Origin: a virus
Lineage: Duplodnaviria > Heunggongvirae > Uroviricota > Caudoviricetes
Direction: 5' to 3' (one strand)
DNA length: 18,574 nt
IMG/VR virus record: IMGVR_UViG_2802429219_000011
Span: 1-18,574 of that record
In this document: positions 1 to 14,678 of the stretch, piece after piece
Position numbering within the stretch: position 1 is the stretch's first letter
Layout: each line of letters opens with the position of its first letter
Translations under genes and position numbers: made by a program
Notes under the pieces: generated by a model
What the model was told of the DNA's origin: nothing
Database searches by the model: none
Seen by the model: only the letters and a program-made list of their open reading frames with translations

Positions 1-451
<451 letters not shown>

Positions 452-720
452 GGTGCACCATCAAACTCTGTATGCTTTACCAGCCAGGATGCCAGAACCT
501 CTGCGCCCAGCACGCCGATAATGAACGACACCAGAAAATGCGCTGCCACACGCCAGGCTGAAAGCGCCTGCGGCATCGTTGCCACAAATAACGCCCCGGC
601 GAACGCACCAAACACAATCCCGAAATCCGTTCCGGTAAACAGCCCGAATACCGTCGCCCCGCCGAGCGCCGCAGCCGTGCCGGAACCGGATAAGGGTTCA
701 GACATACTTTTTCTCCTGTA

Positions 721-745
721 AATAAAAAAGGGCCACCAGCGGCCC
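721..745 (-). terminator. Intrinsic terminator closing the TerB-like moron
   Basis: GGGCC(730-734)-ACCAGC-GGCCC(741-745) hairpin, followed on the minus strand by UUUUUUAUU (complement of 721-729). Confidence 0.45.
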
Positions 746-797
746 GTAAAAAAACAACACCCCGTCAAAGGCACCCGCAGATGCCTTTTGTGTGATG

Positions 798-950
798 TTA
801 TTCAGATTTATGCAGTAAAGGCCGGAGCACGACCAGCGCCATCGCCACCAGCACACCATCTGCCAGCACCGACATCAGCCGTCCGGTGAAATCCACCGCC
901 ACTACCAGAAACAGCAGGATGGCAGCCAGCACAAGGCGCGCACTTTTCAC
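798..950 (-). CDS. Small hydrophobic protein (50 aa, GTG start overlapping the upstream stop)
   Basis: GTG at 950-948 overlaps the TerB-like stop (GTGA). Product VKSARLVLAAILLFLVVAVDFTGRLMSVLADGVLVAMALVVLRPLLHKSE is almost entirely hydrophobic. Below the ORF-track length cutoff; no independent SD. Confidence 0.3.
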   Translation of the reverse strand: MKSARLVLAAILLFLVVAVDFTGRLMSVLADGVLVAMALVVLRPLLHKSE

Positions 951-1372
951 AGGTACTGCTCCAGCGGTAGCTGAAGCGCCTGAGCAATTTTCTTGAGCTG
1001 TGCTTCTTCATCCGGACCAATGCCATCCTGGTCAGCGATATCCAGACACAGGCACAGCACATTAACTGCATCGTCTGTTCCTGCCACGTCAGCCAACTGA
1101 CGAAGGGCTTCAGCATTGGCAGAGCGCGGCGACGCTTCATAACGGGCGCGGATATTTGCACTCATTTGTGCAATCTCACCGGAGAACGGCGCAAAAGCAG
1201 GAAGTGCTGCAATGGTTTTCTCCAGCACCGCGATTTCTTTCGCGTCACAGGTGCCGTCAGCGTATGCAATGGAATACGCGCCCCAGACGGTCGCCTCCAC
1301 TGCATCGCGGTTCTCCATTTTCTTTACTTCAGTAATGGCCTTGCGGGTTTTCTTTTTGAAAATACCAAACAT
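947..1372 (-). CDS. TerB-like domain protein (tellurite-resistance TerB / DjlA-N-like fold), prophage moron
   Basis: ATG at 1372-1370 with AAGGAAAAG upstream. 141 aa with two ADG...D..E...L-type motifs (AYADGTCDAKEIAVLEKTI and DIADQDGIGPDEEAQLKKIAQAL) typical of TerB-family proteins. Family call is from motif recall only. Confidence 0.55.
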   Translation of the reverse strand: MFGIFKKKTRKAITEVKKMENRDAVEATVWGAYSIAYADGTCDAKEIAVLEKTIAALPAFAPFSGEIAQMSANIRARYEASPRSANAEALRQLADVAGTDDAVNVLCLCLDIADQDGIGPDEEAQLKKIAQALQLPLEQYL

Positions 1373-1620
1373 CGTGACTTTTCCTTTTAGTGGGTGAGCC
1401 TGCGCCCGGAGGGTGACCAGCCCACAGAGAAAGTCACACTGACCATCCCGTAAGCTCACCCCTGAAAGGCTCTGTGGTTTTTGATGTGCGCCGGGCGCGG
1501 CGCGAAGAAATGAAATAAGACTTACCTGAAATTAAGGTTAATCTGAGGATTTAAACCATTTTTAAAGCTTAGTAATATCAACTCGTCTCCTGTAGGAGGC
1601 TGATACTTATTATTCTTCAT

Positions 1621-1734
1621 GGACTTTGTCCCGCGGCTTTAATCCGACAGCCGCGCCATTTTTTCACCCTCTCGCAAATTGCTATCTAAAGGACTTTGTC
1701 CCACGAGTATTCCAGGATGCTCGTGTATTTTTTT
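1621..1734 (+). repeat. Two tandem units of a 12-bp motif (GGACTTTGTCCC), each followed by a hairpin and T-tract (terminator-like on the plus strand)
   Basis: Unit 1: GGACTTTGTCCC 1621-1632, hairpin GCGGCT/AGCCGC 1633-1654, T6 at 1659-1664. Unit 2: GGACTTTGTCCC 1691-1702, hairpin ACGAG/CTCGT 1703-1724, T7 at 1728-1734. Confidence 0.5.
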
Positions 1735-1749
1735 GTTTGATGCAGGAAT

Positions 1750-1773
1750 AAAAAAAACCGCCTGGTACGGCGG
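1750..1773 (-). terminator. Intrinsic terminator downstream of the tRNA pair
   Basis: CCGCC(1758-1762)-TGGTAC-GGCGG(1769-1773) hairpin, followed on the minus strand by a U8 run (complement of A-run 1750-1757). Confidence 0.5.
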
Positions 1774-2041
1774 TTAAGGATGTATTACCAGATTTTGATT
1801 AGTATATGATTAATCTCAATGTCACGTTTAGCGATGTTTACAACATCGGGATGATGCATCACCGACCCTGCCAGAGATATTGCAAATCTCTACCAATGAT
1901 GCACCATTCCGATGGTGTAAAAAAATAGCACTGGACTGCAATTGGTATCACTCATTACAGAACGGGACGTGGATAAAGAGGCCAAAAACCATCCCCACAT
2001 ATATAATGTGTCAGTGCATAACACAATCTCGCCTTACTACT

Positions 2042-2117
<76 letters not shown>

Positions 2118-2120
2118 ATA

Positions 2121-2196
<76 letters not shown>

Positions 2197-2258
2197 ACTG
2201 GTTCCTCAAGAGAAATAAAAATGACCGCGCTTTACATCCCCTTCGGAACCGGAGACCG

Positions 2259-2286
2259 ATATTAATAATACCAGCTCTCTTTTCAA
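2259..2286 (-). promoter_or_regulatory. Candidate sigma70 promoter for the tRNA pair
   Basis: On the minus strand TTGAAA (2286-2281), 16-nt spacer, TAATAT (2264-2259), followed by a GC-rich stretch, about 60 nt upstream of tRNA-Thr. Confidence 0.4.
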
Positions 2287-2432
2287 TGGAAAATCACATC
2301 AAGATTTGTAAATATACATATATGTTTTTATTTTTTATGAAATAAAGAAATTATTAAATGCATATTTAACGATTGTTTTTTATCTCAGTTACAATCTGAT
2401 TAATTTTTTCTTCCACACCATTTTGCGGACAT

Positions 2433-2459
2433 AAAAAAACCCGCTCGGCAGCGGGTTTT
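2433..2459 (-). terminator. Intrinsic terminator just downstream of the putative Q gene (tR'-like)
   Basis: CCCGCT(2440-2445)-CGGC-AGCGGG(2450-2455) hairpin, followed on the minus strand by U7 (complement of A-run 2433-2439). Confidence 0.5.
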
Positions 2460-2509
2460 GCTTGCTTTGCCATCATGTACAAAATCGGCAAAATATCAGA
2501 TTTGCACGA

Positions 2510-2538
2510 AATATATGCCTTTTAATCTACTTTTGCAA
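2510..2538 (-). promoter_or_regulatory. Candidate late promoter (pR'-like) overlapping the 3' end of the putative Q gene
   Basis: On the minus strand TTGCAA (2538-2533), 17-nt spacer, TATATT (2515-2510), about 50-70 nt upstream of the tR'-like terminator, mirroring the lambda pR'-6S-tR' arrangement. Confidence 0.35.
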
Positions 2539-3211
2539 CACTTTGCTTTGAAAATGCCGCCTTTTGTTCTGAGCGTGTTCTCATCACAAACAATAAAGCC
2601 TCACTATCCAGACGGTGGAAAATGTGTTTCATTGCAACCCAGTGACCAGTAAATGTTTTGGACCAGTTTTTTGTTGTTACTCCCGCCAGTAATGCCAGTT
2701 CCTGATATTCATAAGTTTCACGCCCAGCCAGCTCACTCTTCACATCCTGTGCCGCCAGCCAGATTAATTTTTTCAGGCGCTCCAGCGTTTTCCCTGCAAT
2801 TTTTCTGGTACCGGATTGGGCGTTAAATTCATTCCACACCCACTGTGTTATCGCAATCTGGTGTTCCCAGCAAATGCTGCCGCTGTAACACCACAGCAAC
2901 CAGGCTTTATGGTGCTCTTCAAGAGACAGAACTGCCCGTCGCCATGATGATGTCGAAAACTCAACCTGACTTACCAGAGGAATTGACGTCCCCTTTGCCA
3001 GCGATTGTTTCCCCGGGATTGGTGGATTATCCCGCGTGACCATTTTTCCAGTCACTTCATCGCGGTACCGGATTTTTTTACGCCTGTAACGCCCTGTATC
3101 GAACATGGCATTCTCCAGCCAGGCTTCAAGCTGGCCTTTTGTTGCCCCACTCAAATCGGCGGTGGCGATAATGAGCTGCTCACGAACAAACTGTAAATAC
3201 TGGTTATTCAT
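2522..3211 (-). CDS. Putative late-gene antiterminator Q (positional call; family not confirmed)
   Basis: ATG at 3211-3209 overlaps the rusA stop (ATGA). 229 aa, lying between rusA and the pR'/tR'-like elements and tRNAs, exactly where lambdoid Q sits. No Cys4 zinc motif is visible, so it is not lambda-type Q; the family is uncertain. Confidence 0.45.
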   Translation of the reverse strand: MNNQYLQFVREQLIIATADLSGATKGQLEAWLENAMFDTGRYRRKKIRYRDEVTGKMVTRDNPPIPGKQSLAKGTSIPLVSQVEFSTSSWRRAVLSLEEHHKAWLLWCYSGSICWEHQIAITQWVWNEFNAQSGTRKIAGKTLERLKKLIWLAAQDVKSELAGRETYEYQELALLAGVTTKNWSKTFTGHWVAMKHIFHRLDSEALLFVMRTRSEQKAAFSKQSVAKVD

Positions 3212-3567
3212 GCGCACTCCAGTTCTGTGATTTTTATCCCCAACCGACCACCAGGAACAGGCAGACCGCGCACAATATTAATTTCATCAAACTGCTCGTC
3301 GTCTATGAGTAGTCCCGCATGCGTCAGCGCATCCAGTAGTGCTTTCAGGATATTGTCCAAGTCACGACGGCGCTTATCCGGTGGCTCTGCAATAATCTTT
3401 ATCGCCAGCCTTCCGGACAGGTTTAATTTCAGTCGCTGCTGGCGAACAATAAGTGCCACATCCCGGCGATAACGCTCACCGGCTTTTGATACAAAATATG
3501 TGCTGCCACGACGTCGCCAGTAGGTGTTCACCGTCGGTGGGTAAGGCAAAACAAACTCTATACGCAT
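3208..3567 (-). CDS. rusA: RusA-family Holliday junction resolvase
   Basis: ATG at 3567-3565 with AGAGG upstream. Product contains PPTVNTYWRRRG ... PDKRRRDLDNILKALLDALTHAGLLIDDEQ ... GGRLGIKI, matching the RusA motifs (PPSNNRYY, DRRRRDLDN, DDAQ) of E. coli RusA. Confidence 0.85.
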   Translation of the reverse strand: MRIEFVLPYPPTVNTYWRRRGSTYFVSKAGERYRRDVALIVRQQRLKLNLSGRLAIKIIAEPPDKRRRDLDNILKALLDALTHAGLLIDDEQFDEINIVRGLPVPGGRLGIKITELECA

Positions 3568-3579
3568 CAGTAACCTCTT

Positions 3580-4635
3580 TTACCCGAGCACGCCGGTTGC
3601 AAAGGCGTGATCAAGAAAACGAAAAATTAAATCAACCTGGGAACCATGCTTTTCTTCGAACGCCAGCGGATCCGCATGAAGCTCGTTGTGATGCTCCCGA
3701 CACAGCGGTAGTGTGAAAATATCGTGGGATTTTGTTCCCATTCCGCCCTGACCATGACCAATCAGGTGATGGGGATCGTCGGCTGGCTTACCACAACACG
3801 CGCACGGCTGTGTCTTTACCCAGCGCGTGTATTTCTCGTTAACCCAGCGGCGACGTTTAGGTCGTTTCATGAAAGATTCCGGAGACTCCGGATCAACGGC
3901 AATGCTGACCACTGTCTTTTCCTGTGGTGGGTTCTGTTGCTGGTGCTGGTGGACGTGAGGCGGTAGCGCAATATTTTTTGTACGCTGCTTCAGTATACTG
4001 GTGGCGGTCTGTTCTCCCGGTATGATGTCGCTTTCGCGGTACACAGAGCGGATTTTTTCCTCTCGTACCCCCAGAGAGCGACGTAATACTGCCTCCGGTA
4101 GTGCGTCCGCCACCTGATTGCAGACCGCCCACCAAGATAATTCAGCCAGCGATAATTCCCGCTCCTGCGCACCGCTTATTGCGTGACGGATGACGTCAAT
4201 CATCCATGCTGTCAGGTTTTGTTGAGCAAGTTGCTCAAGTGATTCTGAGGTCTGGTCACGCAGTTGGTTGTCGCAGTGCCAGCACAACACCATCGCGCCG
4301 GTACCGTAACGATGTATGACGGTTTCGCTGTGATGGTAGTCACCATGAGGCCACTGGCAGGATTTAACATGACGCAGGAGCCAGTCAGACAGTGCACCAG
4401 CGCCGCCGGCAGCACGAATCACCCGCTCATCGCTGAAAAATGGCAGTAATGATTTATCCTCCGCCAACGGCTGGCGAACGGCAGGAGCAACTCCGGACGG
4501 CAGCCCGCGCATGCTTTTCGGTTCAGGCTCCACCAGCACACGCCCCTGCATAAACAAAGGCATCGCATCAGGACCGGGCCTGAAAAGTACAATCCCCAGG
4601 CGGTGAGCAATTTCAGGAGTCACTAATACCCTCAC
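3580..4635 (-). CDS. DUF968-type lambdoid prophage protein (YdfU-like) with a C-terminal HNH-like motif
   Basis: GTG start at 4635 immediately after the upstream stop (internal ATG alternatives exist). C-terminus PCACCGKPADDPHHLIGHGQGG ... LCREHHNELHA has a Cys pair plus HH...N...H spacing as in HNH-type zinc-binding nucleases. N-terminus resembles Qin YdfU as I recall it. Confidence 0.65.
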   Translation of the reverse strand: MRVLVTPEIAHRLGIVLFRPGPDAMPLFMQGRVLVEPEPKSMRGLPSGVAPAVRQPLAEDKSLLPFFSDERVIRAAGGAGALSDWLLRHVKSCQWPHGDYHHSETVIHRYGTGAMVLCWHCDNQLRDQTSESLEQLAQQNLTAWMIDVIRHAISGAQERELSLAELSWWAVCNQVADALPEAVLRRSLGVREEKIRSVYRESDIIPGEQTATSILKQRTKNIALPPHVHQHQQQNPPQEKTVVSIAVDPESPESFMKRPKRRRWVNEKYTRWVKTQPCACCGKPADDPHHLIGHGQGGMGTKSHDIFTLPLCREHHNELHADPLAFEEKHGSQVDLIFRFLDHAFATGVLG

Positions 4636-4636
4636 G

Positions 4637-4909
4637 TTACCTCCAGATGCGTTGCTGGAATGTGCGGGACGGACGCGGTGGGCGCTCGGAGTACGGCAGC
4701 CTGACGTAGATTATCCAGTGACGATAATCGAGGCTGAGGGCTTTCTTAATCTCGTATCCACGTCTGCGGTAGTTATGAATCAGCCATTCGGCCTGTTCTG
4801 CAGTGCATGGGTCATGCTGGTACCAGTCATATTTGAATGCATGAGAACGCCGATCGTGCCTGCTGGCACGATCGGTATCAGAATTGTGTAATTTGGTCTT
4901 GTGCGCCAT
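4637..4909 (-). CDS. Small basic hypothetical protein (Rem-like by position only)
   Basis: ATG at 4909-4907; stop lies 1 nt before the DUF968 GTG, suggesting translational coupling. 90 aa, Arg/His-rich; no motif recognised. Confidence 0.45.
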   Translation of the reverse strand: MAHKTKLHNSDTDRASRHDRRSHAFKYDWYQHDPCTAEQAEWLIHNYRRRGYEIKKALSLDYRHWIIYVRLPYSERPPRPSRTFQQRIWR

Positions 4910-5014
4910 CTGTTTTCTCTGCTGGCGCAGCAGGTGCCAGTTGTTCAGGCTGGCATGTGAATTGTAAACCAGAACACAGGAATAACACAAAGCCCACATC
5001 GGCGGGCTTGATTA

Positions 5015-5443
5015 TTAAGCTGAGTCCGGCGAATACCAGGGGAAATAAATATCGCTTAACGACGTGTGCTTAAGAACAGAGTCCACCGCCAATTTTAACG
5101 TCAACGACATGAAATTCTCAAAATACCATGAATTTTTCACAAAGAATTTTTCATCGATCAACTCTCCATTCATGATATCAAAGTCCGTAATCAGCTCCAT
5201 CTTTAGCTCAAAAGAGGGTTCTTCATCCCCGGCACCATCTCTATCGGGATACCCTTTTATCGATGGCGAAAATCCAATCCGGAACCAACAAGTACCATCA
5301 TCATCGCGCCCCGAAGAAAATTTAACTTCCTCGATCGAGACCTTAAAAAACCCTCCATCATCACTAGTGTTATCCTTGAAACTACTGGAAACAATATCGA
5401 AACCAGCATACTTAATATTTTGTAACATCAGTGACGCATCCAT
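5015..5443 (-). CDS. Acidic hypothetical protein (orf142), third gene of the hicAB block
   Basis: ATG at 5443 (AGAGG 11 nt upstream), or ATG at 5428-5426 overlapping the hicB stop (TGATG). Asp/Glu-rich with no motif I recognise. Lies in a visibly AT-rich stretch. An antisense ORF (5064-5489 +) also exists, so strand assignment rests on operon context. Confidence 0.45.
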   Translation of the reverse strand: MDASLMLQNIKYAGFDIVSSSFKDNTSDDGGFFKVSIEEVKFSSGRDDDGTCWFRIGFSPSIKGYPDRDGAGDEEPSFELKMELITDFDIMNGELIDEKFFVKNSWYFENFMSLTLKLAVDSVLKHTSLSDIYFPWYSPDSA

Positions 5444-5904
5444 CGCTCACCAGCCTCTTTCTTTTTTGTTCTTGCTGAAGGGGAAATGACATAACCAAAA
5501 GAGAATGCTTTTTCCCAAACGAATGTATCTGTCGTTTCTTCGCTTTCCGAATGAGAATGAACTTCTTTTTTGTCAGCAATCTTTTCTTCGATAGCTTTAC
5601 GCACATAATCATTAAGCGTCGTCTTATCCGCCATTGCAGCCAAAAACGCTTTCTTATGAAGATCGCGACCAATTCTGATGTTAAAAGTACCACTCATTGG
5701 TTTATCAGGAGATTTCCCTAACTGCTTGCATGTGTCGAGATAATCTGTAACAGCTTCTTCAAAAGCCGCCCTTAACCCATCCAGTGTTTCCGCTTCGTAG
5801 GTTACAACATCGTTTACGCACTGAATTTTCCCATGAAGTATGTTATCTTCAAGTGAAACCTCAATGCTGCCAAAATAACCTTTATAACTCAGCACATTAC
5901 TCAT
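5428..5904 (-). CDS. hicB: HicB-family antitoxin (HicB N-domain plus RHH-like segment) with an unusual ~45-aa C-terminal extension
   Basis: ATG at 5904-5902 lies inside the last codons of hicA. Product begins MSNVLSYKGYFGSIEVS ... YEAETLDGLRAAFEEAVTDYLDTC ... KPMSGTFNIRIGRDLHKKA, the canonical HicB pattern (YKGY-GS ... P-KP-SG-F-R----LH-K). The ORF is also open from an upstream ATG at 5919. Confidence 0.75.
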   Translation of the reverse strand: MSNVLSYKGYFGSIEVSLEDNILHGKIQCVNDVVTYEAETLDGLRAAFEEAVTDYLDTCKQLGKSPDKPMSGTFNIRIGRDLHKKAFLAAMADKTTLNDYVRKAIEEKIADKKEVHSHSESEETTDTFVWEKAFSFGYVISPSARTKKKEAGERWMRH

Positions 5905-6145
5905 AACTATCAATCTCATCCAAAAGATTTTTCACTTCTTTAAGCACATATCCTTTAACAATATTGCCAGGATGTGGGCAATGAAAAGCCACAAGCCTTC
6001 CATTAGCATTGGTAAACTTCCTTCTTGAGCCTGAACCGGTAAGCATTTCGAAACCATAATGCCCAAGCAACGTCACGAGTTCATCCCATGTAAAATCCTT
6101 TGGAAGCTGATTCAGACGCCACCTCAACTTCTCTTTTTTGCTCAT
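5897..6145 (-). CDS. hicA: HicA-family mRNA interferase toxin
   Basis: ATG at 6145-6143. Product contains GFEMLTGSGSRRKFTNANGRLVAFHCPHPGNIVKGYVLKEVKNLL, matching the HicA/YcfA-like core (G-x-GS-x-R-x-F ... HxPHPG ... LL). Confidence 0.75.
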   Translation of the reverse strand: MSKKEKLRWRLNQLPKDFTWDELVTLLGHYGFEMLTGSGSRRKFTNANGRLVAFHCPHPGNIVKGYVLKEVKNLLDEIDSYE

Positions 6146-6171
6146 TTAAAGTATATCCCTTCCCCCACCAA

Positions 6172-6190
6172 TAGCAACTAACAATCAGTT
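6172..6190. promoter_or_regulatory. Palindrome upstream of hicA, candidate HicB operator
   Basis: GCAACT (6172-6177), 7-nt spacer, AGTTGC (6185-6190), about 30-45 nt upstream of the hicA start; RHH antitoxins usually bind such palindromes. Confidence 0.3.
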
Positions 6191-6373
6191 GCAAGCTCAT
6201 CGCAATAAAGAAGCATAAGAACCCTGTACCTAATTCATAACAACAGAAAACACATGCGAGCATGAAAATGTTACAATAATATTAAAGCCACTTGCTAGTA
6301 AGGTTAAGTGTGGGTGCGTTGAGGATGCCTGACACATCAGGGGTGGCGAGGGATTTCTCCCCCGCCGGGTCTC

Positions 6374-6529
6374 TTACTCCTCAGGTTCGTAAGCTGTGAA
6401 GACAGCGACCTCCGTCTGGCCGGTTCGGATTCGTACCTCGCAGAGGTCTTTCCTCGTTACCAGTGCCGTCACTATGACGGTTAAACAGATGACGATCAGG
6501 GCGATTAACATCGCCTTTTGCTGCTTCAT
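6374..6529 (-). CDS. hokD: Hok-family type I toxin (HokD/RelF-like)
   Basis: ATG at 6529-6527. Product MKQQKAMLIALIVICLTVIVTALVTRKDLCEVRIRTGQTEVAVFTAYEPEE: single TM helix plus the conserved Hok C-terminus (CE-R ... EVA-F-AYE). Matches my recollection of HokD. Confidence 0.85.
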   Translation of the reverse strand: MKQQKAMLIALIVICLTVIVTALVTRKDLCEVRIRTGQTEVAVFTAYEPEE

Positions 6530-6739
6530 AGCCTGCTTCTCCTTGCCTTTCGGCACGTAAGAGGCTAACCTACGTGTGCAAGTCATAGATATGGCCTCAG
6601 ATTAATGTTAAGCGTCTTGCAGGACGCGTAATGTTAACTGGGGCTTTTCTCTATCTGCCGTTGGTGTTCATGCCTGAGACAGATAGCCTCAAGCACCCGC
6701 AGCCATTCTACTTAACTATCCTTTTCCCGCAAATCGTTT

Positions 6740-6823
6740 TTATCCCCAGCGGCAAATCGAATACACCACCAGCGCCACCGCCAGTGCAATTCCTACCGTG
6801 GTGAATGCCTCAGGCCAGGTCAT
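6740..6823 (-). CDS. Candidate 27-aa hydrophobic peptide upstream of the hok leader
   Basis: ATG at 6823-6821 with a GGAGG Shine-Dalgarno 7 nt upstream. Product MTWPEAFTTVGIALAVALVVYSICRWG is a single predicted TM segment. Too short for the ORF track. Confidence 0.25.
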   Translation of the reverse strand: MTWPEAFTTVGIALAVALVVYSICRWG

Positions 6824-6910
6824 TGATTCACCTCCTGCGGTGGTTCCGGTAGCGGCATCCAGTGAGTTGAGCTCTCTACTTCGATGCCGTCTTTGTCCAC
6901 AAAAGCCATC

Positions 6911-7348
6911 TTATTCCCGCCACGAATGGGGCAAAAACACCTTATCCCAGGAACCGGGGAATACATTCCCGAGATCATCGCGAAGAATCACATCGCAGTA
7001 TTCCGCAGGAACTGCATCACTACAGCTTATCCAACCATCTGGAGCTACCGGCGCTGGTTGGGCTGTATAAAGCGGTGTTATATCTGCCCGAAGACCACAC
7101 GTCTCATACAATCGCACATACTGTTCAACTTCTGCTTTGTCAGAATACGTAACCGTAAACGTATCAAACTCATTGTCAATTCGAGTGAAAGTCACCTTCC
7201 ATGCCACCGGCTCTGCTTCCAGCGATGCCAGTGCAATTTTGAATAACTCACCCTCTACCTGTGCCATCCCTGAATTTGGGTGGCATTTCGCAATCGCTAT
7301 TTTTAATTTAGCTTCTTCGATTAATTGTTCTTTGGTTAATTCAGTCAT
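6911..7348 (-). CDS. Lambdoid early protein with a C-terminal DUF551-like segment
   Basis: ATG at 7348-7346 with AAGGA upstream. C-terminal PDGWISCSDAVPAEYCDVIL resembles the DUF551 W-I-S ... LP signature seen in many prophage proteins. Confidence 0.5.
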   Translation of the reverse strand: MTELTKEQLIEEAKLKIAIAKCHPNSGMAQVEGELFKIALASLEAEPVAWKVTFTRIDNEFDTFTVTYSDKAEVEQYVRLYETCGLRADITPLYTAQPAPVAPDGWISCSDAVPAEYCDVILRDDLGNVFPGSWDKVFLPHSWRE

Positions 7349-7349
7349 T

Positions 7350-7568
7350 TCAGTTTTCCTTATATGGATTAATTTTATTGTGTAGTGTGTTGAACGACGC
7401 CCATACCACGTCGTTATACAATTCAATAACTGGCTCAATTATTTTGCCGATTCCCCATACCAGAATTAACGGGGATATCGGTATCATCAACACGATAAAC
7501 AGAATGAGAAACAGGAATTCTGTTGCTCTGCTCTTTCGCGGATAATTTTTCCTGAATAGTGTAGTCAT
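7350..7568 (-). CDS. Small membrane protein (72 aa)
   Basis: ATG at 7568-7566 with GGAG upstream. Hydrophobic core FLFLILFIVLMIPISPLILVWGIG. Its stop lies 1 nt from the next start. Confidence 0.45.
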   Translation of the reverse strand: MTTLFRKNYPRKSRATEFLFLILFIVLMIPISPLILVWGIGKIIEPVIELYNDVVWASFNTLHNKINPYKEN

Positions 7569-7569
7569 A

Positions 7570-7767
7570 TCACTCCCATTTAATTTGCTTAGAACCGTGA
7601 TTTCTCCAGCGGTTTTGTGCCGCACTTCTACGTCGCCTGACACTGTAAAAATGCGTTGGTAACCACCTGGCAAGGCCAGAAGGCGCATAACGAACAACAA
7701 GTCGATTTGAGATGCGGATAAGCTGCCCGGGCTTTGCAGTAAGCAGTTTTGCTTTACGGTTTTTCAT
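7570..7767 (-). CDS. Small basic hypothetical protein (65 aa)
   Basis: ATG at 7767-7765 with AGGAG 9 nt upstream. Arg/Lys-rich. Start overlaps the stop of the upstream 54-aa ORF (ATGA). Confidence 0.45.
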   Translation of the reverse strand: MKNRKAKLLTAKPGQLIRISNRLVVRYAPSGLARWLPTHFYSVRRRRSAAQNRWRNHGSKQIKWE

Positions 7768-7928
7768 CGCTTTGATCTCCTGCGTTTCTTTGCTGCACGT
7801 CGTGCCGCTGCAATACCGGTATGGCGCTTTGGTGCCGGGATAATATTGTCAGCCATCATGACATGTGGAATAACTGTTAATGACGACGCCCAAAACCGCA
7901 CCAGATACGGCAATAAACAATTTTCCAT
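7764..7928 (-). CDS. Candidate 54-aa protein with a strongly basic C-terminus
   Basis: ATG at 7928-7926 with GAGGTG 9 nt upstream. Product MENCLLPYLVRFWASSLTVIPHVMMADNIIPAPKRHTGIAAARRAAKKRRRSKR. Stop overlaps the next start. Below the ORF-track cutoff. Confidence 0.3.
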   Translation of the reverse strand: MENCLLPYLVRFWASSLTVIPHVMMADNIIPAPKRHTGIAAARRAAKKRRRSKR

Positions 7929-8096
7929 TCGCATTTCTCACCTCAACTGACCTGAATATCAGTAATTGTTTGTTGCAACCATTCTTTAGTTAATTCTGCC
8001 ATTTTTATTACCGCCCTTTCGGGCGGCCTCCTGATGTTCTGAGGGTGCAGGAATCCCTCCGGTTAAGGATTAAATTTTTAACAGTGCTAAATTTAA

Positions 8097-8453
8097 TTAT
8101 TCAGTTCTTGATTTTGTCGCCCTGCGTATCCGCACTTTCGCGTTACGCTCAATCTGAATTAGCTTTTCTATATTTTTCCGCCGTTCCTGTTCCTCCTGGC
8201 GCAATAACCTTACATCATCTGCCAGCCTGGTTTCTCTTTTAGCCACAGAGAGCATCCAGTCAAATGGCTCCACAACTGCACCGCAGATTTTACAGCGGAC
8301 CTGACGCTCTTTTTCGTCAACCCGGACAGAGGCGTGATGGCAATATGGTCTTTCCGATGGCTCATAAAGAAAATTAACTTGATTACGTGGGTCATCCTCT
8401 TTTACCGGAAATAAAACGATATTGCTTAACTCATCTTCTGGTTTTATTTCCAT
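8097..8453 (-). CDS. Hypothetical nin-region protein with a Cys/His cluster and a charged coiled-coil-like tail
   Basis: ATG at 8453-8451 with strong SD AAGGAGAGGAG. CHH ... CKIC spacing suggests a small zinc ribbon; the C-terminus is E/R/K-rich. Confidence 0.55.
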   Translation of the reverse strand: MEIKPEDELSNIVLFPVKEDDPRNQVNFLYEPSERPYCHHASVRVDEKERQVRCKICGAVVEPFDWMLSVAKRETRLADDVRLLRQEEQERRKNIEKLIQIERNAKVRIRRATKSRTE

Positions 8454-8510
8454 GCTCCTCTCCTTTGATGCGAATGCCAGCGGTAATTGAAACCTGATAG
8501 CTAATTTCAC

Positions 8511-8939
8511 TCACAGTACCGCCTCCTGAAAATTACCCTGATAGAAAGCCAGTACACGCTGCATAGCTTCGCTCTTCCGGCACTCGCGACAGATTATGTT
8601 CAGATGTCTGTCGTAGCGGCGTATTTCTCCGTCTGGTAACTTTCGAATCAGTGTCTGGTCAGTTGTTTTCTCCGGTGTCTTACGCCATTCACGATACGCC
8701 TGCTCTGATGCAAAAACACCGTATTCCCCGGACATGTATAAATCACCACAAGCCAGTACATCCACAAGGCAGCGTCGGACCGAATGCCAGCCAGCTCCCG
8801 TCGCTCTCTCCAGTTGCGACATCGTCATGCGTTCATTTTTGCGTACCAACCCGATAATTCGTGCCTTCAGCTCTTCCCGCTGTTCGGGTGTAAAAACTTT
8901 TGCCACAAGCCCTCCTGAAAAATCACCTTCACAATTCAT
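8511..8939 (-). CDS. ren: Ren-like protein
   Basis: Start ATG overlaps the P-like stop (ATGA), as for lambda P/ren. C-terminus ICRECRKSEAMQRVLAFY parallels lambda Ren FKECRQSAAMKRVLAVY as I recall it. Confidence 0.55.
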   Translation of the reverse strand: MNCEGDFSGGLVAKVFTPEQREELKARIIGLVRKNERMTMSQLERATGAGWHSVRRCLVDVLACGDLYMSGEYGVFASEQAYREWRKTPEKTTDQTLIRKLPDGEIRRYDRHLNIICRECRKSEAMQRVLAFYQGNFQEAVL

Positions 8940-9601
8940 ACAAAACCAGCTGCCTTCCGGCGTTCATACTCCCGTTTCAGCAACTCAATTGGTGTTGGCC
9001 CCGACGGGCGTTTGGGTGCCGCCAGTTGTCGCCGGACTGGCGGAACGCTCAGGCCGTTACTAACATGCTTTGCCCATTTCGTCAGTTGCCGTTCTGCAAG
9101 CCGTTTTAACTCCCCTTCGGTCATCTGCCGCTCAATCCCCTTTGAACGCATCTCGAGACAAATGTGATACAGCACAGGCTGAGGCCACGGATATTTATCG
9201 CTTCCGTCGTATCGCCAGGACTCATTGCGCCAGCGGCGGTACTCCTCCATCACAGCATCCACCGTCAGACCAAATGGATTTGCCCCACTCTCCAAAATCA
9301 GCGCCACAAACTCAGCCAGGTCCGGAGGCCATGTTTCACCCGCCCGGCAGCGATCCATGCACTGGCGGCAGACCTGCCGGATTTGCTGCTCAGTCATCGC
9401 GCCAATCTGTGCAATCCAGAGCTTCGAAGGTGCGGCCCCGTTCTTCTGGGTCCAGCGGTTCGAATAAACCTCCCCCATGAGTTCCCACAACTTCCACGCC
9501 GTTTCCGTCGCGGATAAATCCGTTTTCACGTTCCCACTGCTCACGTGCTGCCCGAATTTCCTGAACTGCCCGTGATGCGGTGCCACCTGGCGTTGCTGCA
9601 T
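8936..9601 (-). CDS. Lambda P-like replication protein (helicase loader)
   Basis: ATG at 9601-9599 with GGGGG upstream; 221 aa. The block WPPDLAEFVAL ... YPWPQPVLYHICLEM ... MTEGELKRLAERQL parallels lambda P (FLPSPGQFVAW ... YPWKSNAHYWLV ... LTDAELRRKAADEL). Its first ~70 codons overlap the O-like frame. Confidence 0.7.
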   Translation of the reverse strand: MQQRQVAPHHGQFRKFGQHVSSGNVKTDLSATETAWKLWELMGEVYSNRWTQKNGAAPSKLWIAQIGAMTEQQIRQVCRQCMDRCRAGETWPPDLAEFVALILESGANPFGLTVDAVMEEYRRWRNESWRYDGSDKYPWPQPVLYHICLEMRSKGIERQMTEGELKRLAERQLTKWAKHVSNGLSVPPVRRQLAAPKRPSGPTPIELLKREYERRKAAGFV

Positions 9602-10430
9602 GGTTTACCCCCTTGCTGACTGGTTTAACCTGCGCCCTGACGTGATTTACGTGACGGGCGAATTTCTGCTCCCACTGAATCTGCGTAAATACTTTCCCCT
9701 CCGCTGCCCAGTAGTCCCGGAAGGCGGCAAGTTCAGCAGGTGTAAATTCTGTCTCCGGCAAAGCCATCCCCCACAACGCAGCCCGTCGTCGAAAATCCCG
9801 TGACGGATACCAGCTATCGGTCATCGGAAATTTTCCGATGGGTTCGCTCAGGCCATCCAGGAATACAGGGGGTGCTGCCTGTAACGACAAAACTTCCTGC
9901 TCACTGGTCGGAGCACTCTCGCGTGCGTTATGTGTGGGGGTTAGATCTTTGGGTTCCTTTGGGTTCCGTGATCCGTTTTTGGGTGTCTTTGATGGAAAAT
10001 TTGGGTGTCTTTGGTTATTTTCCATGCAGTTAAGAGTTCCGTTTTTGGGTCTGTTTTGTGCTGAAACATAACCATTTTCGGTACTGTTTTTATTAACAGC
10101 ACCAATTTTACCCACCTTTAAAGACTCCCGTTTTTGGGTGTATTCAGGCTCGGCAACACTTTCTTCTACACCGATAAGTCGGTACACCACAATTTGCTTT
10201 GTTCTGCCTTTTCTCTCACCGGTATCAACAATTAACCCAATCTCCATCAGGTGTCGTAAGCTGTCCTGCACAGTCTTTTTGTTCAGTTCCGTTACTTCTG
10301 CCAGGGCAGATACAGACGGGTATGCACACAAATCGGCACCGCACATATCAGCAAGCCAGGTCAATACTGACTTACTGGATGAACTGCCGGTTTTCACCTT
10401 TTTAGCCCATCGTAGTGCATCGATACTCAT
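9390..10430 (-). CDS. Phage replication initiator (O-like): N-terminal winged-HTH domain and DnaT-like C-terminal region
   Basis: The ORF track starts at a TTG (10505); I prefer the ATG at 10430-10428 (MSIDALRWAKKV...) preceded by GGGG. The N-terminus matches the phage replication-protein HTH pattern (LTWLADMCGADL ... PSVSALAEVTELNKKTVQDSLRHL). Contains the iteron array. Confidence 0.65.
   Translation of the reverse strand: MSIDALRWAKKVKTGSSSSKSVLTWLADMCGADLCAYPSVSALAEVTELNKKTVQDSLRHLMEIGLIVDTGERKGRTKQIVVYRLIGVEESVAEPEYTQKRESLKVGKIGAVNKNSTENGYVSAQNRPKNGTLNCMENNQRHPNFPSKTPKNGSRNPKEPKDLTPTHNARESAPTSEQEVLSLQAAPPVFLDGLSEPIGKFPMTDSWYPSRDFRRRAALWGMALPETEFTPAELAAFRDYWAAEGKVFTQIQWEQKFARHVNHVRAQVKPVSKGVNHAATPGGTASRAVQEIRAAREQWERENGFIRDGNGVEVVGTHGGGLFEPLDPEERGRTFEALDCTDWRDD
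9948..10146. repeat. Iteron array (putative origin of replication) inside the O-like gene
   Basis: TTTGGGT core at 9948, 9958, 9978, 10000, 10044 and 10133. Longer copies CCGTTTTTGGGTGTCTTTG (9973-9991), AAATTTGGGTGTCTTTGG (9997-10014), TCCGTTTTTGGGTCTGTTTTG (10038-10058), CCCGTTTTTGGGTGTATTC (10128-10146). A moderately AT-rich stretch lies at 10061-10120. Confidence 0.6.
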
Positions 10431-10953
10431 ACGAACCCCAGACAGACATTTGTTTATCTGCAAAATAATGTTGGTATTGCTGACGATACGCATGCTTGAA
10501 AGCAATAGCTTTTTCTATAAGCTCGTCAGTCTCACGTTCCACAACAGCGGGATCCGCAAAAAGCAGCCCGGACTCCACCACATCGCCATATTCTTTGTTT
10601 AACCCGGCGATCATGTACGTAATGCTTTTTCCGTCAGTAATTTCACAATACAACCTGAAATCACTGATCCGGATAGCCTCCATAATTGCCGGAATCAACG
10701 CCGTGAATTTTTCACGCTTATCCCTGGTGTCAATAGCTTTCCAGCGTTCGAATATCTTCACTCTGTTAACGCCAAGCGCCCGTTGATCAACCGCGCCATC
10801 ATCAAATGTGACACGTTGAACATCGATGTTCGGGCGTTCTTTCAGAGTCCAGAATGCCTCTGTGATTAATATCGTCGCCTGCTCCTGCGTCATTCCTGGT
10901 CGACATACCCAGGCATCCAGAGCCTCGCGAGCCTGCTCAGGAGTGAATATCAT
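10402..10953 (-). CDS. Hypothetical early protein between cro-like and O-like genes (cII/YdaT position)
   Basis: ATG at 10953-10951 overlaps the last 17 nt of the cro-like gene. 183 aa, no motif recognised with confidence. Confidence 0.5.
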   Translation of the reverse strand: MIFTPEQAREALDAWVCRPGMTQEQATILITEAFWTLKERPNIDVQRVTFDDGAVDQRALGVNRVKIFERWKAIDTRDKREKFTALIPAIMEAIRISDFRLYCEITDGKSITYMIAGLNKEYGDVVESGLLFADPAVVERETDELIEKAIAFKHAYRQQYQHYFADKQMSVWGSYEYRCTTMG

Positions 10954-11209
10954 TGTTCACCGCCAGTGATTCATTCGACATACACTTATTTCCACAAGGT
11001 AGTCCATCTGTTGGGTTGGGATAAATGTCAGGGCGAATTTCATGCGGGGTAACTTCCCACTTCATTAACTGGCATAACGGAATTACCTGCTTTGGGGGAA
11101 CGCCAAAGCTAAACCATTGCCAAACGGTCTGTTGAGCGACCCCCATATAGCGACCTATTTCAGCTTGAGTGTATTTCTGCCTAATTTTTTCGCGAGTGCT
11201 ATCTAGCAT
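10937..11209 (-). CDS. Cro-like HTH regulator (YdaS-type)
   Basis: ATG at 11209-11207 with strong SD AGAGGAGGG. HTH segment TQAEIGRYMGVAQQTVWQW. Divergent from the repressor gene. Confidence 0.7.
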   Translation of the reverse strand: MLDSTREKIRQKYTQAEIGRYMGVAQQTVWQWFSFGVPPKQVIPLCQLMKWEVTPHEIRPDIYPNPTDGLPCGNKCMSNESLAVNNDIHS

Positions 11210-11244
11210 TTTGCCCTCCTCTGAAAACTATAAACAAAGCCTAC

Positions 11245-11279
11245 AATAAAAAACTGTACGCAATCAACAGTTTTTTATT
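11245..11279. promoter_or_regulatory. Operator: perfect 13-bp inverted repeat with 9-bp spacer in the divergent cro/repressor control region
   Basis: AATAAAAAACTGT (11245-11257), spacer ACGCAATCA, ACAGTTTTTTATT (11267-11279). Confidence 0.6.
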
Positions 11280-11317
11280 GTGATGCTTTTAACAGTATTT
11301 ACCTGTAAAATTGAATA

Positions 11318-11719
11318 ATGATGAACGCCCTAGAAGTATCTATGTACAGAATCAGCAAGCTTCTTCAGGAAACTGGATGGAGCCAGGCTGAACTTGCCCG
11401 TAGAATTGGTGTGACACAACAAACAGTTCAACAATGGGTCAGCGGTAAGGCTACGCCTAAAGCCTCAAGTTTGGATAAACTGGTTGAGGTTACAGGGCAT
11501 CCATTGCATTGGTTTTTATTGCCTCCTGATGAGGGGGAGCAAATTTTCACCCCTGACACAATGAAAATTGGTCCTCGCCAACGCGAACTGCTCCAAGCTT
11601 TTAGTGCGTTTCCAGAGGAAGACCAAGAAAAAATGCTTCAAGAAATCAAAGACAAGAAAAAATCAATGGAAGAAACTATTGCCCGATGGTTGGCGGCACA
11701 AAAAAGCCGCCGGGCGTGA
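11318..11719 (+). CDS. Prophage repressor, XRE-family HTH (DicA/PaaR2-like)
   Basis: HTH segment SQAELARRIGVTQQTVQQWVSG. C-terminal region (SAFPEEDQEKMLQEIKDK) parallels DicA (NALPESEQDTQLAEMRAR) as I recall it. Divergent from cro-like and directly upstream of the antitoxin/toxin pair. Confidence 0.7.
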   Translation: MMNALEVSMYRISKLLQETGWSQAELARRIGVTQQTVQQWVSGKATPKASSLDKLVEVTGHPLHWFLLPPDEGEQIFTPDTMKIGPRQRELLQAFSAFPEEDQEKMLQEIKDKKKSMEETIARWLAAQKSRRA

Positions 11720-11746
11720 CCACTGTACAAGAAGAGGAGTTATGCC

Positions 11747-11938
11747 ATGAGTACAGCCCTTTCTCCGATAGTTTCAGAATTCGAAACTACCGAACAAGAA
11801 AACAGTTACAACGAATGGTTGCGCGCTAAAGTGACGTTAAGCCTTGCAGACCCTCGCCCCGCAATTCCACATGACGAGGTAATGGCTGAAATGGAAAATC
11901 TTATTGCTCAAATTGCTGCAACTAACAGGAGCGAGTAA
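11747..11938 (+). CDS. Small antitoxin (PaaA2-like, 63 aa)
   Basis: Stop overlaps the ParE start (TAATG). Size, position between a DicA-like regulator and ParE, and acidic composition fit the paaR2-paaA2-parE2 arrangement reported in E. coli O157 prophages. Confidence 0.55.
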   Translation: MSTALSPIVSEFETTEQENSYNEWLRAKVTLSLADPRPAIPHDEVMAEMENLIAQIAATNRSE

Positions 11939-12225
11939 TGTTACCCATTTTATGGCTACCATCTGCTCGCGATGATTTGCGTCAGGTCGTAACCTATATT
12001 GCTAAGGAAAACATTCCTGCAGCACGCAGACTAAAAATACGTATTGAAACGTCTGTTTTAACCCTCTCTGAGCACCCATATCTATATCCGCTAAGTGATC
12101 GAGTATCCGGTTTGCGGGAACTTGTGGTTCACCCTAATTATATCGTGTTGTACCGAGTAGCAACTTCAAGCATTGAAATTGCGAATATTGTGCATGCCCG
12201 TCGACAATTTCCCTTCTCTATCTGA
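11938..12225 (+). CDS. parE: ParE/RelE-superfamily toxin
   Basis: Product MLPILWLPSARDDLRQVVTYIAKEN ... LSEHPYLYP ... GLRELVVHPNYIVLYRVATSSIEIANIVHARRQFP fits the ParE pattern (W-P-A-DL---YI ... G-REL-V--NY---YR ... I-I--I-H-R). Confidence 0.8.
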   Translation: MLPILWLPSARDDLRQVVTYIAKENIPAARRLKIRIETSVLTLSEHPYLYPLSDRVSGLRELVVHPNYIVLYRVATSSIEIANIVHARRQFPFSI

Positions 12226-12241
12226 GCCGAACAATTTCCAT

Positions 12242-12266
12242 ACTCCCTCATTCGAGGGAGTTTTTT
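12242..12266 (+). terminator. Intrinsic terminator after parE
   Basis: ACTCCCTC(12242-12249)-ATTC-GAGGGAGT(12254-12261) hairpin followed by T6 (12261-12266). Confidence 0.55.
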
Positions 12267-12278
12267 GTCTAAGACAAC

Positions 12279-12320
12279 AATTAAAAACTGTTGACACAAA
12301 ACAGTTTTTAATTGTAGATT
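12279..12320 (+). promoter_or_regulatory. Second operator copy overlapping a strong candidate promoter for the dicB-type operon
   Basis: AATTAAAAACTGT (12279-12291), 9-bp spacer, ACAGTTTTTAATT (12301-12313). Consensus -35 TTGACA (12291-12296) sits inside the operator, with TAGATT -10 at 12315-12320 (18-bp spacer). Confidence 0.55.
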
Positions 12321-12496
12321 ATTTTTACCAACCCACCCCGCCCCACAGAATGCAGGGCAATACTTCGAGTTACCAGGCAGTGGTCAGGGGTTAAGTAGCC
12401 AGCCCGAGGCGTAAGAACATGACGGCAGGGTTCAACTTTAACTATGCAGCAGGTTTTTGTTCCGCTACCCCGGCGTTAAGGGGAAATGAGGTCAAC

Positions 12497-12652
12497 ATGG
12501 ATACTATCGATCTTGGCAACAACGAATCTCTGGTGTACGGCGTGTTTCCCAACCAGGACGGCACGTTCACCGCGATGACGTATACCAAAAGCAAAATGTT
12601 TAAAACCGAAAATGGTGCCCGTCGCTGGCTGGAAAGAAACTCAGGTGAGTGA
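12497..12652 (+). CDS. ydfA: YdfA-like small protein (51 aa)
   Basis: ATG at 12497 with GAGG 5 nt upstream. Product MDTIDLGNNESLVYGVFPNQDGTFTAMTYTKSK... matches my recollection of Qin YdfA. The ORF-track start (12419) is an upstream in-frame extension. Confidence 0.65.
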   Translation: MDTIDLGNNESLVYGVFPNQDGTFTAMTYTKSKMFKTENGARRWLERNSGE

Positions 12653-12653
12653 T

Positions 12654-12782
12654 ATGGATTTCGACACAATCATGGAAAAGGCTTACGAAGAATACTTCGA
12701 AGGCCTTGCCGAAGGCGAAGAAGCTCTCAGCTTCAGTGAGTTTAAACAGGCGCTTTACAGTTCGGCAAAATCTATCGACTAA
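12654..12782 (+). CDS. ydfB: YdfB-like small acidic protein (42 aa)
   Basis: ATG at 12654, 1 nt after the ydfA-like stop. Product MDFDTIMEKAYEEYFEGLAEGEEALSFSEFKQALYSSAKSID. Below the ORF-track cutoff. Confidence 0.55.
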   Translation: MDFDTIMEKAYEEYFEGLAEGEEALSFSEFKQALYSSAKSID

Positions 12783-12793
12783 CGGGGTTATAG

Positions 12794-13432
12794 ATGGAAT
12801 TTAAAGAGTTACCAAAAGAAATCAAGGTGATTGCAGCGCATGCACTTTGTCAACGTCTGTCCGAAGTTGAATTAGAATCTGCAACGAAGAAAGACATTGA
12901 TAATATGGCTCGTAATGTGCGCGATGCGTTTACCGGATTGTATTTCTGTTCGTCTGTAAATAAACACGACTCAGAGAGTGTGGCAAAGAAAATTGCAGAA
13001 ACGACAGCGCAAAACATCAATACGAAACCAATGAAAGAAGAAATTGATCAGTTTGCTCATGATGCTGGTTTAAAAAACAAGAAAGAAAAATCGCCATACG
13101 CGGGAAATATGTTTGTTTATGACAATCTCATCAGAATCCGTGGCAAGATTCCGGCTGAATACCTGACAAAAGTTCATCAGGCATTGCTTAAGAACCTGGA
13201 AACAGAAGTATTTGATGGCAACGCCAACGGATCCTTCAGAGTGTCAACTCTTGCGAAAGAATGGGATACAGAGAATAGCTGGAATGTTGCGACGTGGATG
13301 TTCAGTAACAGAGCTTCAGCCCTGGAAGCAGCAACATGTATTTGTGACCTGTTAAAAGCAGACCACAAATACAACCTTGATGTATACAGCTATATTTACG
13401 CTGAACACTATCCGCTCTGGATTGACTGGTAA
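12794..13432 (+). CDS. Hypothetical 212-aa protein, AT-rich cargo gene in the ydfC position
   Basis: ATG at 12794 preceded by GGGGTTATAG. No motif recognised. Visibly more AT-rich than its neighbours. Stop abuts the stop of the convergent 69-aa gene. Confidence 0.6.
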   Translation: MEFKELPKEIKVIAAHALCQRLSEVELESATKKDIDNMARNVRDAFTGLYFCSSVNKHDSESVAKKIAETTAQNINTKPMKEEIDQFAHDAGLKNKKEKSPYAGNMFVYDNLIRIRGKIPAEYLTKVHQALLKNLETEVFDGNANGSFRVSTLAKEWDTENSWNVATWMFSNRASALEAATCICDLLKADHKYNLDVYSYIYAEHYPLWIDW

Positions 13433-14392: not shown

Positions 14393-14394
14393 CA

Positions 14395-14598: not shown

Positions 14599-14678
14599 TT
14601 AATATCCGGTTTCATTTTTAGATGCCAGCAATGGCAGGGATTTGTTCACCCTTAAATCTGTAATGAGGTTAAAACAAA

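Follow-up and report, generated by a model that had tools for sequence, protein, structure and literature searches.

The 18,574-nucleotide stretch of DNA analysed here (the window; positions 1 to 18,574 of IMG/VR record IMGVR_UViG_2802429219_000011, Caudoviricetes) is part of a lambdoid prophage with its late operon on the minus strand. Along that strand the order is RusA, antiterminator Q, a terminator, tRNA-Thr, tRNA-Gly, another terminator, a cassette containing the genes of a TerB-family protein and a small DUF3927 membrane protein, and a Phage_holin_8 gene (Table 1). An initial annotation had placed a TerB-like moron with a coupled small open reading frame (ORF) between the tRNAs and the lysis region. 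This is indeed where the cassette lies, and all of the elements proposed there can be found on the minus strand, at most a few bases from where they had been put. The cassette is introduced by a structured 5' leader RNA, and this leader, apparently a member of an undescribed family of ~120-150-nt pseudoknotted leaders, is the main subject of what follows.

The leader in the window represents what we term type I and is matched at 1370-1512 by the covariance models R1, R2 and R3 with 144.5, 141.8 and 146.8 bits, respectively. It is found upstream of 197 type-1 and 127 type-2 TerB genes; over its ~135 bases it is nearly the same before both types and is better conserved than the TerB protein, which shows 43% identity between them. 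The helices were derived from eight type I sequence groups and subsequently from diverged copies. Helices P1, anti-SD:SD (the pairing of the Shine-Dalgarno sequence, SD, with an upstream complement), b and e are nested, and in most variants the minimum-free-energy fold consists of them. Helices d and a cross b and e, and helix f crosses all of the others except P1. The 5' arm of helix d consists of the P1 loop plus two bases of the P1 stem. The 3' arm of helix a is the 3' half of the hairpin-e loop and its 5' arm lies just 5' of the anti-SD. In helix f, the spacer that separates the SD from the AUG pairs with the 5' half of the hairpin-e loop. In thermodynamic folds of nine variants the SD is mostly paired (probability of being unpaired 0-0.5), with z = -1.7 to -3.3.

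Several of these helices take clearly different forms in different lineages. The outermost pair of P1 is G-C, A-U or C-G by lineage, and for one pair of helix d the MAFFT alignment described below has C-G in 42 sequences and U-A in 22. Helix a is found as CCACAA/UUGUGG, CCUGCAGAG/UUCUGCAGG, CCGCAGA/UCUGCGG and CCAAAGA/UCUUUGG. Helix f is found as AUUACGUC/GACGUAAU, UUCGUC/GACGAA, AGCGUUU/AAACGCU and others in independent lineages, and each loop matches the bases that precede the AUG of that particular gene. The nested inverted repeats from which the initial annotation had suspected a structured regulatory RNA fared differently from each other. The outer one (GGGTGAGC at 1392-1399 and GCTCACCC at 1454-1461; 13 nt with 85% complementarity) is conserved, whereas the inner one exists but does not hold as a conserved pairing. 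The hairpin of GUGAC 1437-1433 with GUCAC 1417-1413 does not survive in the other sequence groups, which do retain helices e and f; GUGAC 1437-1433 lies in the hairpin loop, and its covarying partner is the other GUCAC, at 1378-1374, beside the AUG. The structured RNA itself is supported by the comparison of homologs, and a regulatory role for it would be in line with the predicted pairings.

Table 1. Positions of the leader helices (written as minus-strand RNA), the cassette and the neighbouring features in window coordinates.
Feature	Position	Strand	Remarks
Type I structured 5' leader RNA	1373-1509	minus	covariance models
P1 hairpin	GCGCC 1503-1499 / GGCGC 1492-1488	minus	3 of 5 pairs change on both sides
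Helix d	CGCCCGG 1497-1491 / CCGGGCG 1409-1403	minus	7 of 7 pairs change on both sides (model-fitted alignment)
Helix a	CCACAGAG 1477-1470 / CUCUGUGG 1429-1422	minus	8 of 8 pairs change on both sides (model-fitted alignment)
Anti-SD:SD	CCUUU 1469-1465 / AAAGG 1387-1383	minus	extends helix b; 2 of 5 pairs change on both sides
Helix b	GGGGUGAGC 1462-1454 / GCUCACCC 1399-1392	minus	8 of 9 pairs change on both sides with type II copies
Helix e hairpin	GGGAUGGUCAG 1449-1439 / CUGGUCACCCU 1420-1410	minus	18-nt loop; 10 of 10 modelled pairs change on both sides
Helix f pseudoknot	GUGACUUU 1437-1430 / AAAGUCAC 1381-1374	minus	6 of 8 pairs change on both sides (MAFFT alignment)
TerB-family gene	947-1372	minus	ATG at 1372-1370; 141 residues
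DUF3927 small membrane protein gene	798-950	minus	GTG start; 50 residues; GTGA overlap with the TerB stop
Intrinsic terminator at the end of the cassette	722-745	minus	17 bases before the holin start; terminator scan
RusA gene	3567-3208	minus	
Antiterminator Q gene	3217-2522	minus	Pfam Phage_antiter_Q, E = 7.7e-94
tR'-like terminator	2459-2436	minus	just 3' of Q
tRNA-Thr	2196-2121	minus	
tRNA-Gly	2117-2043	minus	
Second terminator	1775-1756	minus	between the tRNAs and the cassette
Phage_holin_8 gene	400-705	minus	Pfam match to profile positions 1-79 of 121
3' part of istB, IS21-family element	13-390	plus	IstB_IS21 match, E = 7.6e-42

Covariation of the leader across homologs, which the initial annotation had proposed to check, was found in the form of compensatory changes in all seven helices. 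In a MAFFT alignment of 26 representatives that was not fitted to any structure and covers the 47 pairs of the six long-range helices, P1 being left out, both partners change in 14 pairs, compared with 7.9 +/- 1.7 in shuffled alignments (none of 500 reach the observed number) and 2-5 in slid controls, and 90.5% of the cells are paired. These pairs are distributed over helices f (6 of 8), a (3), e (3), d (1) and anti-SD:SD (1), with none in helix b. When the diverged type II copies are included in an alignment fitted with R2, covering P1, anti-SD:SD, b and e, changes on both sides are seen in 23 of 29 pairs (10.2 +/- 1.8 shuffled, 9-11 slid; 93.8% of cells paired), and in the R3-fitted alignment all 15 pairs of helices d and a change on both sides (4.4 +/- 1.2 shuffled, 3-7 slid; 96% of cells paired). 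G.U pairs are frequent, in helix e among others, and since the opposite strand would have A.C in their place, RNA of the TerB sense is favoured. Comparison of duplex energies between cognate and non-cognate arms was informative for helix a only, and uninformative for the G+C-rich helices e and d, for which duplexfold finds alternative pairings.

Two other readings of the leader sequence were considered but not adopted. An ATG within GGGATGG opens a 19-codon ORF that could have encoded a leader peptide, but this ORF is present in the window only and the ATG is missing in the other sequence groups. The 5' arm of helix b (CAGGGGUGAGCC) resembles an extended SD and its 3' arm the 3' end of 16S ribosomal RNA; this likeness is weakened by type II copies with GAAAUGAGCC and is not relied on. 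Homopolymer runs in the leaders vary among close homologs (our loci L155:1129-1272, L046, L081 and others), with up to 11 G in the G-run of helix b and 5-8 C among homologous leaders in the C-run at the junction of the 3' arms of e and d. This variation could be of the slippage type or could reflect sequencing error.

The gene that follows the leader is matched by the Pfam TerB profile (PF05099) above its gathering score (E = 1.2e-7, 32.4 bits against a cut-off of 24.4), which bears out the TerB identity given in the initial annotation, with the alignment spanning only residues 11-57 of the 141-residue protein. Its 233 homologs carry the precomputed PF05099 assignment and are named in their sources as TerB family, tellurite/colicin resistance or TciA proteins. 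The ATG at 1372 is the start used in the NCBI annotation of homologous loci. An N-terminal extension from the GTG at 1459, giving a 170-residue ORF in the TerB frame, was rejected on the basis of that annotation and of 1-base indels in the leaders of close homologs, which break the frame. The AlphaFold model, built with 15 homologs, is all-helical with six helices and a pLDDT of 87.7. A Foldseek search of the PDB with this model returned as top matches four chains of 2H5N (probability 1.0, TM 0.52-0.59), which we take to be a TerB-family structure and which is the sole convincing match, the next ones having probabilities of 0.41 or less. A sequence search of the PDB with the TerB protein gave only chance-level matches to PNPase and no TerB-family protein among the solved structures. 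The protein contains two acidic motifs of the putative metal-binding ..DG..D/E..E type, AYADGTCDAKE at residues 36-46 and DIADQDGIGPDEE at residues 111-123. Asp 39, Gly 40, Glu 46, Asp 111, Asp 114 and Gly 117 are invariant in the 15 homologs, and both motifs are kept in the 43%-identical TerB type.

The small ORF, which the initial annotation had described as a GTG-initiated 50-residue hydrophobic ORF overlapping the TerB stop, proved to be just that and to encode a DUF3927 protein (PF13064; E = 4.4e-14, 52.6 bits against a cut-off of 25), with residues 4-48 aligned to profile positions 4-48 of 53. Two hydrophobic segments flank a conserved DFT motif. The ORF is kept in every full-length homologous locus, with a length of 50-54 residues and the conserved core VDFT(S/G)..MS.LADGVLV, and in all of them its start lies either inside the TerB stop (GTGA) or directly after it (TGATG or TAATG). 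Both the ORF and the coupling persist at the locus where TerB is only 43% identical. With the TerB profile match and this conservation, neither of the two findings that the initial annotation named as speaking against it was obtained. One database protein, P0051 (196 residues), is an in-frame TerB-DUF3927 fusion; being a single sequence, it may be either genuine or a frameshift artefact. In prophage PP2 of Escherichia coli E2348/69 (our locus L257:459-617; NC_011601.1 740958-741116) a DUF3927 gene follows a different gene, which encodes a 247-residue membrane protein and not TerB, and the published small RNA (sRNA) PasD2 begins 41 bases after that DUF3927 gene. The cassette is closed by a terminator as clean as the initial annotation had described it, with the stem GGGCC-GCTGGT-GGCCC at 745-730 (six pairs, five of them G-C, and a 4-base loop) followed by the T-run TTTTTTATTT.

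The TerB-DUF3927 pair is real, coupled and common, and belongs to routine annotation. The series "TerB family protein, DUF3927 family protein, putative holin" is annotated by the NCBI pipeline among matches in 521 of 5426 complete E. coli genomes (~10%), and homologs of the pair are found across the Enterobacterales, including Citrobacter, Enterobacter, Erwinia and Klebsiella phages and others, so TerB is not the unexpected cargo that it had initially been taken for. The description as a moron holds in part. The cassette is inserted between conserved modules (Q and the tRNAs on one side, the holin on the other), it is variably present, and it has its own terminator; at the same site, other phages carry the gene of a solute-binding protein instead, or DNA methylase genes upstream of the cassette. 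In the strict sense a moron needs its own promoter too, and no sigma-70-like promoter was found between the terminator at 1775-1756 and the leader or inside the leader by a consensus scan, which is weak evidence. Other ter genes are absent from the window, where the neighbours of the TerB gene are the tRNAs, the DUF3927 gene and holins.

Conservation starts abruptly at ~1509, the sequences upstream being of unrelated types, and the conserved block starts at the first transcribed helix. In most loci this helix comes directly after the terminator of the previous unit: a terminator-like hairpin and T-run end the upstream sequence in 76 of 95 distinct contexts. Upstream of the leader in the window there is only an A+U-rich hairpin with a U-rich run. 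As no promoter was found and the block of conservation opens with a transcribed helix, the cassette is most simply regarded as part of the Q-antiterminated late transcript. Leader, terB, the coupled DUF3927 gene and the terminator would then form a self-contained accessory unit in a Q-dependent late operon, and the flanking terminators would keep it silent without Q.

TerB is not the only gene to have such a leader: unrelated accessory genes are preceded by leaders of this architecture but of different sequence, with two or three of them in each phage. When viral contigs were scanned with a pattern, a type I leader was located at the same site before the gene of a 281-residue secreted NMT1-like solute-binding protein, which is followed by a lipoprotein and holins. 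With the covariance models, a second and a third copy were then detected in these phages, downstream of the lysis genes; at 24-75 bits they are far more diverged. These type II copies precede genes for KilA-N proteins, an ANT/KilAC antirepressor and several unknown proteins. They keep P1, d, a, b and e with different sequences and retain UUUCAG, UGAGCC/GG(C/U)UCA and the AAAAGG SD. Helix f can be seen clearly in some, but copies with a short loop have it only weakly or not at all. A blastn search with one type II copy matched 291 phage records, among them 933W-type Shiga toxin (Stx) 2 and Stx1 phages, VT2-Sakai, O104:H4 phages, Shigella Stx phages and Salmonella phages; the type I leader is present in 31 phage records, and the family as a whole in ~300. 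In Stx2-converting phage I (our locus L377:3501-3647; AP004402.1 58459-58601) this diverged copy is placed within the lysis cassette, where it separates the endolysin gene R from ant, which encodes the antirepressor; this is its site in 933W-type Stx phages, and ~290 further phage records carry it. Rfam 15 gave no match over 1373-1509 at the gathering score or at E <= 10, and none over the ant leader of an Stx2 phage at E <= 5. Full-text literature searches, including those for DUF3927, for TerB with prophage and holin, and for the ant leader, found no paper that holds the leader sequence or describes the element, and papers on ant of Stx phages and on the small RNAs of the region contain no description of it.

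On balance, we favour the view that the leader would be a cis-acting translational control element that sequesters the ribosome-binding site (RBS) of a self-contained late-operon cassette with coupled TerB and DUF3927 genes. The folded leader would bury the RBS twice, through anti-SD:SD, which extends helix b, and through helix f, so that translation would be off by default: terB would not be translated, and the DUF3927 gene would follow it through the GTGA coupling. Helices P1, d and a could either lock one compact multi-pseudoknot fold or form a competing conformer that frees the RBS, the latter being conceivable because helices a and f share one 18-nt loop. On geometric grounds this loop is not fully pairable with the partners of both a and f, which suggests a switch between occluded and open states; a single compact multi-pseudoknot fold is the main alternative to such a switch. 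Switching on would need remodelling of the leader; candidate causes are temperature, a small ligand, an RNA-binding factor from the phage or the host, and the route that folding takes while Q-modified transcription proceeds fast. As for the products, TerB would be a soluble all-helical domain bearing two acidic ...DG...E motifs, which the two-span DUF3927 protein would tether. Probably the DUF3927 protein holds TerB at the inner membrane, where the pair may modify envelope or ion stress, exclusion or lysis.

It is unlikely, though still worth weighing, that the leader is instead a constitutive structural element, either a 5' fold that protects against RNases, a processing site for RNase III or RNase E, or a fixed damper that keeps translation low. 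Nearly every base is paired and most of the helices could fit a single fold, in which P1 and d form a classical H-type pseudoknot, and most copies stand right after a terminator at the start of the cassette, a useful spot for processing or insulation; nor was a ligand-like conserved unpaired core identified in the leader. Protection or processing, however, needs no specific pairing with the SD and the start-adjacent bases, yet helix f covaries with exactly those, and the sharing by helices a and f of a loop too short to pair fully with both, again a geometric consideration, also speaks against a fixed structure.

We hold it somewhat less probable again that the leader is a specific sensor, i.e. 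a riboswitch or the operator of a dedicated RNA-binding protein, with the invariant UUUCAG, UGAGCC/GGCUCA and the GGGC after helix a as the binding site, in which case one signal would co-regulate all leader-bearing cassettes of a phage, including the ant and kilA-N genes and terB. Its invariant blocks between freely covarying helices do resemble those of riboswitches, ribozymes and protein operators, its pseudoknots make for a complex architecture, and two or three copies per phage genome stand before functionally unrelated genes. This heterogeneity of the cargo genes, on the other hand, points to no common ligand, and the invariant blocks are complementary to each other and covary in type II (helix b), so that their double use in alternative pairings could explain their conservation. 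For the family taken together, we would suggest only tentatively that it is a new class of sensor RNA (for a ligand, a protein or temperature) and a shared post-transcriptional switch for lambdoid accessory genes, among them the gene of the Ant antirepressor, which in 933W-type Stx phages is lodged between R and Rz. If the sensor reading were true, one signal would coordinate the expression of antirepressor, KilA-N and TerB proteins and would influence induction, lysis and toxin release.

That the conserved block acts as DNA (a promoter or operator, a recombination boundary of the mosaic or a protein site) or as an independent small RNA is highly improbable: its 5' edge is a mosaic junction with upstream sequences of unrelated types and the Q-to-lysis region carries the sRNA genes AgvB/AsxR and Pas (PMC4104026; bioRxiv 10.64898/2026.05.13.724894), but an RNA transcribed and folded in the sense of the gene is indicated by the compensatory changes and the G.U pairs, the leader runs without a terminator into the SD and AUG with helix f including start-adjacent bases, the promoter scan found nothing in it or just before it, and it has no likeness to PasA, PasC, PasD or any Rfam small RNA.

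Several points weigh against translational control by an RBS-sequestering leader, or at least limit the weight of the evidence for it. The leader in the window is only slightly more stable than shuffled sequences (z = -1.1 to -1.7), and the case for structure, a strong one, therefore rests on the comparison of homologs. Of the three covariation counts, two are biased in favour of the tested structure because their alignments were fitted to it, and significance is overstated by the shuffle controls, given that the sequences are related and recombining. Helix b hardly varies among type I leaders, where it does not covary and several of its single changes are left uncompensated, and all seven helices may be unable to form together. 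Some TerB loci in other genera have unrelated upstream regions, and the leader is therefore not required for TerB expression. The function ascribed to the TerB-DUF3927 pair is drawn only from family names, the topology of the partner, the gene order beside the holins and one possibly artefactual fusion. Whereas the helices, their covariation, the occlusion of the RBS in predicted folds and the spread of the family were observed, it is from these that we infer translational regulation, switching and the nature of the trigger.

An RBS-sequestering leader of this kind would have its closest counterparts in three known systems, which are compared here for mechanism with no claim of membership. In the lambda cIII mRNA (Lambda_thermo in Rfam), alternative pairings occlude or expose the SD and start codon and thereby set translation. 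Like the leader described here, this is a lambdoid-phage mRNA leader that occludes or exposes an RBS before an accessory regulator; it differs in being much smaller, in overlapping the coding start, in having no pseudoknots and in belonging to the early operon, whereas the present leader has seven helices, belongs to a multi-copy family, lies in the late region and gives no Lambda_thermo match. In the com-mom system of phage Mu, a single hairpin sequesters the mom RBS and is opened by the zinc-finger protein Com, which is encoded just upstream. There too a late, potentially harmful accessory gene stays untranslated until a factor remodels its leader, as is proposed here, but the fold of the present leader is far more elaborate and serves many different genes. 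In the preQ1-II and SAM-II riboswitches the pseudoknot includes the RBS, and, as in the leader, covarying helices flank invariant bases. The leader is two to three times larger than these riboswitches, has no known ligand-related gene context and has no match in Rfam.

The TerB protein of the cassette shares with TerB of terZABCDE and other PF05099 proteins the Pfam match, the all-helical fold and the two acidic DG...E motifs. It differs in that no other ter genes are nearby and in that its partner is the 50-residue DUF3927 membrane protein, not TerC. The anti-sRNAs AgvB/AsxR (PMC4104026) and the Pas sRNAs (PMC8550237; bioRxiv 10.64898/2026.05.13.724894) are encoded downstream of Q and pR', around the lysis genes, and TerB is a typical neighbour gene of PasA and PasC (PMC8550237; bioRxiv 10.64898/2026.05.13.724894). 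These RNAs are short, terminator-ended, trans-acting and Hfq-dependent, whereas the leader is continuous with a coding sequence. Identity with a Pas sRNA was rejected when blastn with PasA, PasC and PasD, taken from E2348/69 at the published coordinates, found no homolog in the window, in which there is no Rfam match for AgvB/AsxR either.

The leader is a candidate for a new family of large multi-pseudoknotted RNAs that is absent from Rfam and present in hundreds of lambdoid phages and about one in ten complete E. coli genomes. Among the genes that it precedes are some that determine how the phage behaves (antirepressors and KilA-N proteins) as well as possible lysogenic-conversion genes (TerB and the secreted binding protein), and it would explain why accessory cassettes travel as units of leader, gene and terminator. 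If the proposed switch is real, it would add an unrecognised post-transcriptional layer to late-gene control in medically important phages, one copy being inside the lysis cassette of the major Stx phages. As an object of study the leader is well defined at ~135 nt, with natural compensatory variants for each of its seven helices.

The prophage itself appears to be defective, an IS21 insertion having apparently removed the remaining lysis genes and the structural genes, since the profile match of the holin stops at position 79 of 121 where istB begins. Several smaller features of the surrounding region were recorded. The tR'-like terminator at 2436-2459 on the minus strand shows a sub-threshold Rfam likeness to the Salmonella prophage RNAs isrJ/isrK (27.5 bits against a gathering score of 37). 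A 25-nt inverted repeat (1837-1861 and 1897-1921), located between the tRNA genes and the terminator at 1775-1756, has arms that are 88% complementary and 35 nt apart; in Rfam it is overlapped by meaningless sub-threshold microRNA matches only. On the plus strand, two direct repeats of GGACTTTGTCCC at 1621-1663 and 1691-1735 are each followed by a hairpin and a T-run; they are antisense to the late operon and face the minus-strand terminator at 1775-1756. This layout over 1621-1735 gives no AgvB or AsxR match in Rfam and resembles the "convergent sRNA pairs" at the moron site of enterohaemorrhagic E. coli prophages (PMC4104026). A 32-residue ORF, MKNNKYQPPTGDELILLSFKNGLNPQINLNFR, at 1522-1620 on the minus strand stops 13 bases 5' of the leader. 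In the early region of the prophage there is a hok/sok-type toxin-antitoxin module at 6374-6698 on the minus strand, in which Rfam sok matches 6524-6698 with 109.5 bits.

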